A stretch of 64,000 nt of DNA from Bacteroidaceae bacterium (GTDB lineage Bacteria; Bacteroidota; Bacteroidia; Bacteroidales; Bacteroidaceae), in assembly GCA_017416805.1 (NCBI GenBank), contig JAFQBB010000030.1, positions 16,341 to 80,340 of the forward strand, given 5' to 3'. Positions 33,785-54,687 of the stretch are shown in pieces. The position numbers were made by a program, and so were the translations under genes. The notes beneath the pieces were generated by a model that worked only from the letters and a program-made list of their open reading frames with translations, had not been told where the DNA came from and made no database searches. How positions within the stretch are numbered: position 1 is the stretch's first letter; each line of letters starts with the position of its first letter.

Positions 33785-33947
33785 GGATTTAAAGGGGTTA
33801 TCGCTTCGCAAGGAGTTATCGGCCCGATGAGCTTAGGAGTTAGAGCTAAATGTGCTGCTTGCATGATAGCTTTACTATTGGTTAGCAGGCTTTGCCTGCG
33901 ATAACTCCTAACGAGCAAAGCGAGTGATAACTTCTTTAACTCCTTTG
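33785..33947. repeat. GGAGTTAAAGGAGTTATC-family composite hairpin element, copy 1 (fills the grpE-dnaJ gap)
   Basis: Arms GTTATCGCTTCGCAAGGAGTTATCGG... and ...CGATAACTCCTAACGAGCAAAGCGAGTGATAAC. The core is the reverse complement of the core at 52470-52520. Confidence 0.9.
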
Positions 33948-33949
33948 TT

Positions 33950-34591
33950 TCACTGTCCCACCACAACCTTTGCATGGCGGATAACCTTGTCATTCAACTG
34001 GTATCCGGTTTGCACGCAATCCAGAATTTTGCCTTTCAGTTCATCTGTCGGTGCCGGTACTAAGGCTATAGCTTCATGAAAGTCTGTGTTGAAATCTGCT
34101 TCTTGGGTTTCAATTTTGTTTAATCCTTCTTGTTGCAGGGTCTTCAGGAATTTGTTGTATATCAGTTCTACTCCATCCTTTAGAGCGCAAATTTCTTCGT
34201 TGTCGCTTTTCATGTTTTGCAGTGCCCGCTCCAAGTCATCAATAATGGGTAGAATAGCGGAAATGGTCTTTTCACCTCCGTTCTTGATGAGTTCTGCTTT
34301 CTCTTTCAACGTGCGTTTGCGGTAATTGTCAAATTCAGCAGCTTGACGCAGAATCTGGTCTTGTTGGGCTGCAATTTTTTCTTCGCAGGCAATCAGTTGT
34401 TGTTGCATCTGCTCTTCAGGTGTCAGTTCTTTCTTTTCGGTTTCCTCGGTAGCTTCCTTGTCTGTCAGGTTTTCACCTGCTACAGTTTCCTCGGTAGCTT
34501 GTTCGTTCAGTTCCTCCTGTTGCACCTTTTTTTCCTCTGTCTGATTCATGCTATGAGAATTCTTTTTGTTGTTCTTATGTCTCTTTTTCAT
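33950..34591 (-). CDS. grpE: Nucleotide exchange factor GrpE
   Basis: Acidic N-terminal region, then FDNYRKR and the C-terminal GYQLNDKVIRHAKVVV. The start may be the internal Met at 34549. Confidence 0.9.
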   Translation of the reverse strand: MKKRHKNNKKNSHSMNQTEEKKVQQEELNEQATEETVAGENLTDKEATEETEKKELTPEEQMQQQLIACEEKIAAQQDQILRQAAEFDNYRKRTLKEKAELIKNGGEKTISAILPIIDDLERALQNMKSDNEEICALKDGVELIYNKFLKTLQQEGLNKIETQEADFNTDFHEAIALVPAPTDELKGKILDCVQTGYQLNDKVIRHAKVVVGQ

Positions 34592-34750
34592 TGTGGGGTG
34601 GATTTTATAAGTTATTTTTTATCTAACAAATCCTTTGCCATAATGTTCTTCTCGTCAAAATGGATGCAAAATTACTCATTTTCTGCCATACTGGCAATAT
34701 CGTATGACAAGTTTTCCTCTTTTTCTCCTTTCCTTTTCGCTTTTTAGTTG

Positions 34751-34758
34751 TATCTTTG
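34751..34758 (+). promoter_or_regulatory. Candidate -7 box TATCTTTG upstream of the ABC-F gene
   Basis: Matches TAnnTTTG, 90 nt upstream of the ATG at 34848. Confidence 0.4.
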
Positions 34759-34847
34759 CAAACTGAATGGTAGGTGTGTTTTAATGCACCTCTATTTCTC
34801 CTTTCAAGAAACAAAAGAATATATATATAATAAGGTATAAAAGAAAC

Positions 34848-52619: not shown

Positions 52620-53906
52620 ATGACCCTCACATCCCGTATCATCCGCCGTGTATCGGCTTTTCTGTTCGTAATACTCACTTTATGGTCCGTACTTTTCTAT
52701 CTCGTCATGATGGATGAAATCACAGATGAGGTGGACGACGCCATTGACCTCTATGCCGAAAACGTCATTACCCGTTATCTGGCCGGAAAGGAATTGCCCG
52801 ATACGGACAATGGGACAAACAATAGCTACCACATCAATCGGGTGACGGAGGAGTATGCCCGTACACATCCGCATTTCTCATATACAGACGAGACACTATA
52901 TATTGCAGATAAGCACGAGGCTGAGCCGGCCCGTGTGATGAAGACTATTTTCCGCAATTCCATAGGGGAGTGGATGGAGCTTACCGTCATTACCCCCACC
53001 ATTGAAAAGAAAGATTTGATGGAGTCAATTGCCTATTGGATATTGGGTCTGTATCTGGCCGTTGTGATCACTATCATTGTGGTGAATGCTTGGGTCATAC
53101 GTCGCTCTATGCGTCCGCTTTACCGTTTGCTCGGCTGGCTTGACCGTTACAATATCAATGAGCAGGCGGATCCGATTGACAATCCTACAACGGTGACCGA
53201 ATTTCAAACACTGAACGATGCTATCCAACGTTTTTCGCAAAGGAATCATGAATTGTTTGAACAACAGAAGCGCTTTATCGGTGATGCTTCGCACGAACTC
53301 CAGACACCCATTGCCATTTGTCTGAATCGTCTCGAGATGCTTTGCGATACAGATCTTGGCGAAGAGCAGATGGGAGAGGTCATCAAAACCCTTCAGACAC
53401 TGGAGCACATGTCAGAGTTGAATCGCTCGCTTCTGCTTCTCTCCAAGATAGACAATCATCAATATCTTGATACTGTACCTGTGGACATGGCCGCTTTGGT
53501 GCATCAGACACAGAATGAATACCGCCGTATGGCCGCAGAGCGGAAAGTGAAAGTGACTATTGAAGAAACCTGTCACCTTGTGTGGACAATGAATCCGACT
53601 TTGGCCAAGATACTCGTCCATAACCTTTATCGCAATGCTCTTGTTCACAATTTGGCAGAGGGCGATGGAGAACTACATATATATATAGGTACGCGCGAAA
53701 TGGCATTTAGTAATACCGGAGCCCCCGTGGCTCTTGATGAGGAGCATATCTTTGACCGCTTCTACAAGGAGGGTGGGCGCGAAGGGTCCAGTGGACTTGG
53801 TCTTGCCATTGTGAAAGCTATTTGTGATACAAGCGACCTGTCTGTAGGTTATGATTTTGTGGAAAGAAAGCATAGGTTTGTGGTGGGATTCTTTAAAAGA
53901 AGTTAG
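52620..53906 (+). CDS. Sensor histidine kinase (two TM segments, HisKA + HATPase_c)
   Basis: H-box FIGDASHELQTPI and G2 box GLGLAIVKAI. Confidence 0.9.
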   Translation: MTLTSRIIRRVSAFLFVILTLWSVLFYLVMMDEITDEVDDAIDLYAENVITRYLAGKELPDTDNGTNNSYHINRVTEEYARTHPHFSYTDETLYIADKHEAEPARVMKTIFRNSIGEWMELTVITPTIEKKDLMESIAYWILGLYLAVVITIIVVNAWVIRRSMRPLYRLLGWLDRYNINEQADPIDNPTTVTEFQTLNDAIQRFSQRNHELFEQQKRFIGDASHELQTPIAICLNRLEMLCDTDLGEEQMGEVIKTLQTLEHMSELNRSLLLLSKIDNHQYLDTVPVDMAALVHQTQNEYRRMAAERKVKVTIEETCHLVWTMNPTLAKILVHNLYRNALVHNLAEGDGELHIYIGTREMAFSNTGAPVALDEEHIFDRFYKEGGREGSSGLGLAIVKAICDTSDLSVGYDFVERKHRFVVGFFKRS

Positions 53907-53968
53907 AGGAGGGCTCCTTCTATCTCCCTTTATTTCCCTCAGTAAAGTGAAAAACTCCCCCTCTCCTC
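53899..53968. repeat. Partial or degenerate GGAGTTA-family remnant overlapping the kinase stop codon
   Basis: GAAGTTAGAGGAG followed by TCTATCTCCCTTTATTTCCCTC. The same 15-mer, TCTATCTCCCTTTAT, is in the tail at 49131. Confidence 0.6.
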
Positions 53969-54076
53969 AAAAAAAATCGCAAAAATATTCTTTTTTCAGA
54001 TTCTTTTCAGATTGTCCTGATATCTTTGCATCAGAAACATTGAACAAAGAGTATTAACTAATAAAAAAGTAAGATT

Positions 54077-54505
54077 ATGAAAAAGGTATTATTTGCTATC
54101 GTATGTTTGTTTGCACTGAGTACTCAAACTTTCGCTGACCGTCCCGTAGAGAAGTCACAACTTCCCGTTAAGGTGCAGGAGTTTATAAAGCAACACTTCT
54201 CCAATGTAGAGATTTCGTATGCCAAGCAGGACAATGATTGGTTCGAACGTGACTATACCGTAGTGTTGACCAATGGTGACAAGTTGGAATTCACTAGCAA
54301 AGGCGAATGGAAAGATGTGGATTGCGAGCACAACCAAGTGCCAGAGGCCATTATACCAACTGCCATCCGTAAGTATTTGAACGAAAATCAGAAAGGACAC
54401 CGTGTGGTGGAAATCAAGAAAGAGCGCCGTCATTATGATGTAAAATTGAGCAATAAGTTGGAGATGGAGTTCAGCCTCGATGGCAAGTTGTTGCGGTATG
54501 ATTGA
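54077..54505 (+). CDS. PepSY-like (DUF2874-type) periplasmic protein
   Basis: Signal peptide. Repeated LP..V..FI..HF / EWKDVDC modules. Usual partner of this RR/HK pair in Bacteroidetes (from memory). Confidence 0.6.
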   Translation: MKKVLFAIVCLFALSTQTFADRPVEKSQLPVKVQEFIKQHFSNVEISYAKQDNDWFERDYTVVLTNGDKLEFTSKGEWKDVDCEHNQVPEAIIPTAIRKYLNENQKGHRVVEIKKERRHYDVKLSNKLEMEFSLDGKLLRYD

Positions 54506-54510
54506 AATTT

Positions 54511-54687
54511 GAGGAGTTAGAGGAGTTAAAGGAGTTATCGGCTCTTCGAGCCTAAGGAGTTATCGCAGGCTTAGGCCTGCTGGCCAATAGTTTTGCTGGC
54601 ATGTGTTCATTGAGATTATTCATAGTCGAAACTATCGGCTTTTAACTCCTAACGAGCGCAGCGAGTGATAACTCCCTTTAACTCCTT
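54511..54687. repeat. GGAGTTA-family composite hairpin element, copy 5 (after the PepSY-like gene)
   Basis: GAGGAGTTAGAGGAGTTAAAGGAGTTATCGGCTCTTCGAGCCTAAGGAGTTATCGCAGGCTTAGGCCTGCTGGCCAATAG...TAACTCCTAACGAGCGCAGCGAGTGATAACTCCCTTTAACTCC. Confidence 0.9.

Follow-up and report, generated by a model that had tools for sequence, protein, structure and literature searches.

Intervening sequences (IVSs) of the 23S rRNA gene are located in helices 9, 25 or 45, while the Correia elements are intergenic elements of ~100-160 bp, with unique 26-bp terminal repeats and a TA duplication. To our knowledge, no protein gene is associated with the Correia elements. De Gregorio et al. are said to have described, in 2002-2003, that the Correia/NEMIS elements of Neisseria are co-transcribed with their neighbours, form hairpins and serve as RNase III substrates. 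The 23S IVS of Coxiella incorporates an S23p ORF and tandem GACAGAT heptamers, the first of which marks an RNase III site, and the functionality and origin of the 23S IVSs "remain unclear" (PMC4990558). Homology between the 23S rRNA intervening-sequence proteins (IVPs) and Avd, an accessory protein of the diversity-generating retroelements (DGRs), has also been noted (PMC10053308). A literature search recovered no earlier description of the element presented here.

The window, which denotes the whole 64-kb stretch of DNA analysed, contains five copies and one internally deleted remnant of one palindromic element family. Copy A (33785..33947, - strand) lies in the grpE/dnaJ gap, separated by 2 nt from the end of grpE and by 26 nt from the beginning of dnaJ, and is found in all contigs of the same species (L119 and L120). 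The full-length copy B (48579..49151, - strand) occupies the gap between etfA and the acyl-CoA dehydrogenase gene (acd) and encloses an IVP gene, while the gene-less copy C (50194..50350, - strand) lies between etfB and etfA, 9 nt past the etfB stop and 16 nt before the etfA start. Copy D (52386..52605, + strand), which has additional degenerate outer units, is inserted between the genes for a response regulator (RR) and a histidine kinase (HK), 3 nt past the stop codon of the former and 14 nt before the start of the latter. The remnant (53899..53968, + strand) retains both outer ends in the gap between the HK and PepSY-like genes, and copy E (54511..54687, no strand assigned) is found 5 nt past the PepSY-like stop and 91 nt before the rubrerythrin gene. 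These copies, the remnant and the flanking genes had been correctly identified in the initial annotation. Its statement that each copy exactly fills its gap applies to copies A to D (2-9 nt after a stop, 13-26 nt before a start), but not to copy E with its distance of 91 nt.

When up to two mismatches were allowed, GGAGTTAAAGGAGTTA matched the whole window fifteen times against 0.06 expected, with all matches falling within the five copies. The matches lie on the + strand at the left ends of the copies and on the - strand at the right ends, and the copy ends are thus terminal inverted repeats. A search of the window for the exact words GGAGTTA/TAACTCC yielded zero additional copies. Every copy combines GGAGTTAAA 9-mers, arranged as inverted arrays, with an inner stem and small hairpin modules, and the modules listed in the initial annotation are all present in an order that varies from copy to copy, as it had described. 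Its observation on the core at 52480 likewise stands: a 34-nt core in copy D (52480-52513) is the reverse complement of 33849-33882 in copy A with a single mismatch (0 expected), and a diverged version is held by copy C. Folding predicts a long branched hairpin for every copy on both strands, for example at -93.2 kcal/mol for copy D (z = -10.7) and -55.4 kcal/mol for copy C (z = -6.1), and zero matches to Rfam 15 at the gathering score were obtained across the whole window.

Copy B is delimited by a left inverted array at 48579-48606 and a right inverted array at 49097-49128, with degenerate units continuing to 49151, and its arms of 32 nt are 94 % complementary. Between the arrays, the inner stem is formed by 48622-48645 paired with 49060-49083. 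The enclosed gene (48646..49017, - strand) is co-oriented with etfB-etfA-acd and encodes 123 amino acids from its second ATG, the start chosen by gene callers, while an in-frame ATG upstream at 49053 would extend the product to 135 amino acids. On the basis of its profile matches to PF05635 (23S_rRNA_IVP; E=5e-38) and TIGR02436 (four helix bundle protein; E=9e-36), the product is assigned to the four-helix-bundle 23S rRNA intervening-sequence proteins. This identity had been overlooked in the initial annotation. The closest solved relatives are PDB 2GSC and 2RLD, with five chains deposited per entry. The protein is under purifying selection (dN/dS 0.08-0.10, about 0.09) and the IVPs are basic, with a median pI of 8.95. 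The family is very large, with 21,231 clusters at 50 % identity matching at E <= 1e-3, and is almost unstudied in the literature. The IVP ORF is missing from copies A, C, D and E, and a profile-HMM search of ~850 kb of fetched Bacteroidales DNA recovered no divergent IVP paralogues beyond the three known genes and L118, a metagenome contig with the window's own IVP gene. No match to transposase or defence-system models and no recognised catalytic domain were found in the IVP. Although the protein also matches PF22296 (bAvd-like; E=1e-8), a role as the DGR accessory protein Avd was rejected, with a score of 38 bits against the Avd equivalog NF033474 (cut-off 80 bits) and with etfA and acd as neighbours. 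Neither a reverse transcriptase nor template/variable repeats occur near the gene.

The closest parallels to copy B are the ORF-bearing 23S IVSs of Leptospira, Coxiella burnetii and others. Both place a PF05635 S23p ORF, in sense to the host transcript, in the loop that closes a long stem of inverted repeats. Both also have short direct repeats arrayed in tandem around the stem, and a sporadic distribution. They differ in that the host transcript here is an mRNA operon spacer rather than a 23S helix, in the purifying selection, instead of decay, of the protein, and in the many gene-less derivatives and extra mini-hairpin modules. The Correia elements are similarly short, intergenic and hairpin-forming, with terminal inverted repeats, and co-transcription would be a further shared feature if the elements in the window are read with their neighbours. 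Their arms are not tandem 9-mer arrays, however, and the full-length form with an IVP gene also sets the present elements apart, in which no duplication is visible. REP/BIME elements with their RAYT genes (REPINs) share the dispersed extragenic palindromes in many copies per genome, a single-copy gene itself flanked by inverted repeat copies, the modular mosaic structure and the location after gene 3' ends, but RAYT is a Y1 transposase of the IS200/IS605 type, whereas the IVP is a four-helix bundle of ~120 amino acids. Avd and the IVP are both small, basic, nucleic-acid-associated proteins with homologous four-helix bundles, and are distinguished by the equivalog score and gene neighbourhood given above.

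The same repeat is present in dozens of Bacteroidales genomes. The 18-mer GGAGTTAAAGGAGTTATC occurs in no fewer than 117 stretches, almost all of them belonging to Bacteroidales genomes, while three matches in non-Bacteroidales bins lie within coding sequence and were discarded as chance matches. From the loci fetched by the genome scan and the window, ninety elements could be delimited, which are mostly 90-240 bp and, like MITEs, short, multi-copy, gene-less and bounded by terminal inverted repeats. Only three measure about 480-570 bp and these are exactly the ones carrying an IVP ORF, while the far commoner short elements of 90-240 bp never contain an IVP gene. A recognisable transposase was sought and none was found, the only longer relative of the short elements being the one that encodes the IVP.

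The architecture of copy B is widespread among IVP loci. A bracketing inverted repeat exceeded all shuffles in 41/69 testable loci, and tandem arrays with a period of 7, 14 or 8-10 flank the gene on at least one side in 55/69. In gut, soil and sediment metagenomes, inverted arrays enclose most IVP genes. The arrays are built of 7-10-mers that are specific to the lineage and have a core close to G-R-A-G-N-Y-A (unit profile G.95, R.90, A.95, G.74, N, C.67, A.93) and evolve in concert within one genome. L138 encodes two IVP paralogues on one contig with different arrays. In L141 and L023, every unit has one position at which the two arms systematically fail to pair, which suggests that the arrays themselves, and not perfect pairing, are kept. 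None of the twenty IVP loci in which rRNA was sought lies in rRNA, and the link with the classical IVSs rests on protein family and architecture rather than location. The initial annotation had not recorded that this architecture is general for the IVP family.

The short elements are preferentially located behind genes, with 54 of 61 independent elements adjoining a gene 3' end, a stop codon within 40 nt in 40/61, and fourteen in convergent as opposed to six in divergent gaps. Orthologous sites vary between species. At the etfB/etfA site of copy C, B. timonensis, L210 and L128 lack an element and have gaps of 5, 4 and 25 nt, respectively, while the site holds a minimal hairpin of 84 nt in B. 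helcogenes and spans 182-189 nt in the window and L207. At the RR/HK site of copy D, L207 carries a 340-nt version of the element, and the gaps orthologous to that of the remnant contain full elements between conserved flanks in L053 and L207. Presence/absence polymorphism of the MITE type is therefore evident at orthologous sites, while no target-site duplication is visible between filled and empty etfB/etfA junctions, where the arrays give the element ill-defined ends and identity between the genomes is only 78-79 %. The etfA/acd copy is common to many Bacteroides and Prevotella species, and the window and L207 share filled sites at a gene identity of 72-91 %, so that the insertions are old and activity is low. 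In B. helcogenes P 36-108 (CP002352.1), the IVP gene likewise lies between etfA and acd. Between these two, the IVP genes share 85 % nucleotide identity, similar to the neighbouring genes, as fits vertical descent at the etfA/acd site. Comparison of the IVP with host-gene phylogenies provided only a weak test (rho 0.13 with ACD and 0.38 with EtfA; the pairs are not independent).

An orientation bias is restricted to the gene-bearing copies. Where inverted repeats bracket an IVP gene, this gene and its upstream neighbour lie on the same strand at 32 loci and on opposite strands at one. In the window, the polarity of copies A, C and D is the same and the IVP gene of copy B is co-oriented, although the "four of four" previously counted extends to copy B only through its gene, since the short cores cannot be reliably aligned to it. 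When the loops of the gene-less copies and of copy B were aligned locally, the scores were 12-19 on either strand and thus uninformative for orientation. The leader-like motif GCCGATAGTTTCGACTATGAAT of copy E lies on the - strand, so that this copy is probably antisense to its neighbours. Outside the window, an all-against-all core alignment graph, which is driven by asymmetric modules, gave 5:2, 1:3 and 0:2 with no demonstrable bias among gene-less copies, and orientation by leader/trailer motifs yielded too few cases, with mixed counts. The earlier interpretation of these copies, as co-transcribed structured RNA modules or an orientation-biased mobile element, is thus partly supported, the bias being strong for the gene-bearing form and not demonstrable for the gene-less copies outside the window.

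We consider it probable, with some reserve, that the copies are selfish cassettes of the IVS type and their gene-less derivatives, which the operon transcript would traverse and RNase III would probably cleave. The full-length form of about 0.5 kb, copy B, would represent the cassette, with the IVP gene in the loop of a long stem and arms composed of inverted arrays of 9-mers, while copies A, C, D and E and the remnant would be internally deleted, mosaic derivatives that have lost the gene. Read-through by the operon transcript is suggested by the lack of room for a promoter and by the tight coupling of the flanking genes where the site is empty. A transcript stem of at least 20-30 bp may then be cleaved by RNase III, by analogy with rRNA IVSs and the Correia elements of Neisseria, so that the insertion would be a tolerated site of processing or decoupling instead of a terminator, with cleavage releasing the IVP message. 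The basic IVP itself may bind the repeat units of the element that encodes it.

Ordinary intrinsic terminators or attenuators would also be expected as hairpins after stop codons, and 14/61 short elements do lie in convergent gaps, but this explanation is highly improbable. A terminator scan of 46-56 kb listed none of the copies, which have no T-run and whose stems are long and A/T-rich, while a separate canonical terminator-like site follows acd at 46741-46776. Moreover, the grpE-dnaJ, etfB-etfA-acd and RR-HK operons together harbour four copies, each ending 13-26 nt short of the following start codon, and the initial annotation was right in not regarding them as simple terminators. It appears unlikely, though deserving of some weight, that the elements are instead intercistronic RNA structures of the REP/BIME type, selected by the host for shielding the upstream mRNA segment against 3' exonucleases or for adjusting how strongly adjacent cistrons are expressed relative to each other, with the IVP an occasional passenger. 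The position directly after stops, the preference for gene 3' ends, the long retention at the same operon gaps in related species, the very stable stems and the compensatory changes in the inner stem would all be accommodated by such selection. However, orthologous gaps are empty in close relatives, where the genes stand 4-5 nt apart, which argues that the structure is dispensable, and the composition at a given site changes freely. Size classes furthermore track the presence of the IVP exactly, and the architecture is common to IVP loci across phyla, which points to the cassette, rather than the host, as the unit of inheritance.

The compensatory substitutions, for which the initial annotation had recommended a search, do occur in the inner stem and arms, but a DNA palindrome would produce the same result. 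Mismatches in the arms comprise 68 G.U against 89 A.C (p = 0.11), and this absence of a G.U excess in the sense transcript, whether negative or underpowered, provides no positive evidence for sense RNA structure as the selected object and counts against host-selected RNA structures. It speaks for an element acting at the DNA level, in which the arrays would be iteron-like sites bound by either the IVP or a protein of the host, or else cruciform or recombination sites, and the RNA hairpin would be incidental. The conservation of the G-R-A-G-N-Y-A unit rather than of perfect arm pairing, the concerted evolution of arrays within a genome, the paralogue-specific units of L138 and the basic protein all agree with this alternative. 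We nevertheless regard it as quite unlikely, given that a role for transcription would more easily explain why the gene is so strongly co-oriented with its upstream neighbour and why divergent gaps, which hold promoters, are avoided, and that RNA is the level at which the classical IVS relatives act (PMC4990558).

Beyond this locus, the cassette interpretation can be extended, more tentatively and with considerable doubt, to the view that rRNA IVSs are the rRNA-resident fraction of a very large and unrecognised class of selfish cassettes. Members of this class would consist of a PF05635 gene between inverted arrays of G-R-A-G-N-Y-A-type 7-10-mers, would reside mainly in operon spacers and would occur in many phyla. 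In this view, the arrays would be recognised by the protein encoded between them, and gene-less hairpin families would arise from the cassettes and shape mRNA processing. Such families would include the five copies described here and perhaps the other array hairpins in the window, where GTAGCTA, TGTAAAT and GTAATCCGY families are seen. As the IVP is a homologue of Avd, spread of the element via an RNA intermediate is conceivable. The findings bear on the origin and mobility of the 23S rRNA IVSs and on the role of their conserved ORF. The operon-borne design, lineage-specific arrays, purifying selection and apparent gene-less offspring render the IVS question experimentally tractable in cultured gut Bacteroides, with B. 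helcogenes P 36-108 as an example of a cultured carrier, and offer the concrete hypothesis that the protein recognises the repeat unit while RNase III renders the insertion harmless. In practice, the repeats break short-read assemblies at operon spacers and could be taken wrongly for regulatory RNAs or terminators.

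A search for GGAGTTAAAGGAGTTA with up to two mismatches returned 15 matches in the window against 0.06 expected, all within the five copies claimed in the initial annotation: A (33785-33947, between grpE and dnaJ), B (48579-49151, between etfA and the acyl-CoA dehydrogenase gene acd), C (50194-50350, between etfB and etfA), D (52386-52605, between the response regulator, RR, and histidine kinase, HK, genes) and E (54511-54687, after a PepSY-like gene). A remnant lies at 53899-53968, between the HK and PepSY-like genes. The proposed repeat family is borne out, and Pfam agrees with the proposed flanking genes (dnaJ, grpE, acyl-CoA dehydrogenase, etfA, etfB, RR, HK, PepSY-like and rubrerythrin, rbr). 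An exact GGAGTTA/TAACTCC word search of the 64-kb window revealed no further copy, and Rfam yielded no family match across the whole window. The GGAGTTAAAGGAGTTA matches fall on the + strand at left ends and on the - strand at right ends, and the copy ends thus constitute terminal inverted repeats. The copies keep to one grammar: GGAGTTAAA 9-mers run along the arms, a GGAGTTATC variant stands before each small hairpin module (for example GCTTCGC/GCGAAGC, GGCTC-TTC-GAGCC, GCAGGC-nnn-GCCTGC and ACTCGCTTTGCTCG), and a variable core sits inside an inner stem, AAAGCCAATAG...CTATTGGCTTT. Modules are frequently confined to one arm, which produces the mosaic of shuffled modules recognised earlier, and the 34-nt core of copy D does recur reverse-complemented, in copy A, with one mismatch. 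Folding predicts a long branched hairpin for every copy on both strands (sense-strand z of -10.7 for copy D and -6.1 for copy C). Copies were said to fill their gaps exactly; this holds for A-D, which begin 2-9 nt past the stop codon of the preceding gene and finish 13-26 nt short of the following start codon, but not for E, where 91 nt remain before the rubrerythrin gene. Some cores in comparison loci (L053, 6500-6945; L207, 2653-3030 and 1945-2224) contain an unrelated G+C-rich palindrome, CGTAGGGGTGCCCCTTGTGGGTACCC...GGGATGCCCCTAC, which suggests a second repeat family nested within these elements.

The ORF of copy B (48646-49017, - strand; 123 aa from the second ATG, the start used by gene callers) matches PF05635, '23S rRNA-intervening sequence protein' (E=5e-38), and TIGR02436, 'four helix bundle protein' (E=9e-36), and is referred to here as an IVS protein (IVP; IVS, intervening sequence). 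This family comprises 21,231 clusters (50% identity) matching at E <= 1e-3. The IVPs are basic (median pI 8.95), and their dN/dS is 0.08-0.10 in the three pairs with measurable dS, all of which have high dS. Among solved structures the closest are 2GSC and 2RLD, both uncharacterised proteins whose entries hold five chains each. Assignment as a DGR Avd was rejected on a score far under the Avd cut-off, and no defence-system model matched the protein.

At least 117 reference-genome stretches contain the 18-mer GGAGTTAAAGGAGTTATC, nearly all of them Bacteroidales among the matches listed (Bacteroides, Phocaeicola, Mediterranea, Prevotella/Segatella, Tannerella and Parabacteroides); three listed matches in other phyla were discarded as chance occurrences inside coding sequence. 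Genuine Segatella-type elements of this family are also found on contigs binned as Lachnospiraceae (L012) and Waltera intestinalis (L015), probably mis-binned Bacteroidales contigs. Ninety elements were delimited in the window and the loci fetched by the GGAGTTAAAGGAGTTATC scan, the majority 90-240 bp long. An IVP ORF is present in exactly three (the window, L046 and L013), which are also the only three of ~480-570 bp, and the short copies can thus be regarded as gene-less relatives of a ~0.5 kb cassette.

Scanning metagenomes with the three aligned IVPs recovered 590 relatives, from which 80 loci (gut, soil and sediment) were kept. A bracketing inverted repeat scores above every shuffle for 41/69 testable IVP genes, and tandem arrays adjoin at least one side of the gene in 55/69 and both sides in 40/69, the arrays on the two sides being reverse complements of each other. 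For example, an environmental locus (L184, 2786-3540) carries ~28 GGAGTCA heptamers upstream of the IVP gene and ~26 inverted downstream (inverted-repeat score 172). One contig, L138, holds two IVP paralogues, with identities to the query of 68% and 36%, whose arrays differ. Three cassettes (L133, L134 and L139) share another conserved location, upstream of a gene encoding a protein that starts MSDKIKPSEVS, which may be an ATP synthase alpha-subunit N-terminus. Array periods are 7, 14 and 8-10, and the units differ by lineage (GGAGTCA, GAAGTCA, GGAGACA, GAAGACA, GAAGCCA, GGAGCAA and GTAGTCA; GGAGTTA plus one to three A in Bacteroidales), sharing a profile (G.95, R.90, A.95, G.74, N, C.67, A.93) that is somewhat flattered by the prior rotation of each unit to its best GGAGTCA match. 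In the Coxiella 23S rRNA IVS, the S23p ORF is preceded by three tandem GACAGAT heptamers, with an RNase III site at the first of them (PMC4990558); rotated to GATGACA, this unit fits the profile. We rate the elements as kin of IVS elements, or of MITE/REP-like palindromes. No rRNA was found at the 20 IVP loci where it was sought, a literature search returned no account of such elements in Bacteroidales, and the repeat strings are absent from the papers searched that mention the IVP family.

Insertion polymorphism, proposed as a check, is evident between species. The etfB-etfA gap measures 4 nt in L210, 5 nt in B. timonensis AP1 (L088), 25 nt in L128, 84 nt in B. helcogenes (an arm-only mini-hairpin) and 182-189 nt in the window and L207. 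More distant Prevotella-type genomes carry, in this gap, elements of the same architecture with other units. With the element absent, the neighbouring genes lie 4-5 nt apart, which points to a single transcript. Genes of the window and L207 share 72-91% nucleotide identity, and the elements in their orthologous gaps differ greatly: the RR-HK gap is 237 nt in the window versus 340 nt, the HK-PepSY gap holds a 170-nt remnant in the window versus a full 377-nt copy, and a GGAGATA-unit family replaces the window's element in the PepSY-rbr gap of L207. Many Bacteroides and Prevotella genomes have the gene-bearing copy between etfA and acd; an unrelated ORF (~200 aa) takes its place in B. timonensis AP1 (L088, 6966-7645). 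No target-site duplication is visible between filled and empty etfB-etfA junctions, where the element ends are fuzzy arrays and the genomes share only 78-79% identity. Six independent short-read assemblies carrying the window's GrpE (L121-L126) end ~47 nt past the grpE stop, within copy A; the repeat evidently breaks such assemblies at operon spacers.

With any ORF of 100 aa or more counted as a gene, a simple heuristic, the neighbour upstream of inverted-repeat-bracketed IVP genes is on the same strand in 32 cases and opposite in 1 (p = 1e-4 against a 0.7 baseline), and the downstream neighbour in 27 and 6, respectively. Among 61 independent short elements, 31 lie in co-directional, 14 in convergent and 6 in divergent gaps; a gene 3' end adjoins 54, and a stop codon lies within 40 nt of 40. 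The earlier claim that copies are co-oriented with transcription stands in part: leader-like (GCCRATAG-YTTYGACT...ATG) and trailer-like (CCATGCAAGCAGCAC) motifs from the window and L207 tentatively place A, C, D and three of the L207 copies in the direction of host transcription and E in the opposite one, and the attempts made gave no reliable orientation for gene-less copies.

On balance, we favour reading the copies as selfish cassettes of the IVS type, together with gene-less forms derived from them, that occupy transcribed operon spacers; operon transcription would read through them, RNase III would probably cleave the long stem, and the IVP would likely bind the repeat units. Host-selected REP-like mRNA structures are an unlikely explanation, and a DNA-level array or cruciform function appears more doubtful still. 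The space between element and next start codon leaves no room for a promoter. That the hairpins act as intrinsic terminators is highly improbable, since no copy fits the terminator pattern, in keeping with the initial annotation, and a distinct terminator-like site (46741-46776) follows acd. It falls within 46719-46778, where a 22-mer repeated 2.7 times contains the palindrome TGAACATATGTTCA and is followed by a T-run, and it is the sole strong one near the etf-acd operon.

The inner stem shows the compensatory change that had been sought: doubly changed cells number 64, compared with 26 +/- 4 in shuffles and no more than 22 in slid controls, although symmetric copies were pre-selected and a DNA palindrome would behave alike. 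Arm mismatches display no sense-strand G.U preference (68 G.U versus 89 A.C, p = 0.11; 13 loci versus 15 when counted per locus). Furthermore, left units GTAGTTAAG are systematically mismatched with right units CTTAACTCC in L141 and L023, and conservation may thus act on the arrays themselves and not on perfect pairing.

Six other intergenic hairpins in the window have arms of inverted tandem 7-9-mer arrays with unrelated units, and may represent sister families of the same class. These include GTAGCTA-type (6640-6768), TGTAAAT/TGTACA-type (18851-18974 and 43173-43337), AATTATG (23675-23744), GTAATCCGY (32430-32570, just downstream of dnaJ; -64 kcal/mol) and CATCTGCGW (2383-2791) hairpins. None has an IVP gene beside it, and at least five of these hairpins fill the space separating two co-directional ORFs, the doubtful case being the 2383-2791 pair. 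Direct tandem arrays also occur, at 27066-27166 (22-mer, 4.6 copies, 92% matches) and 44096-44255 (23/24-mer, ~7 copies).
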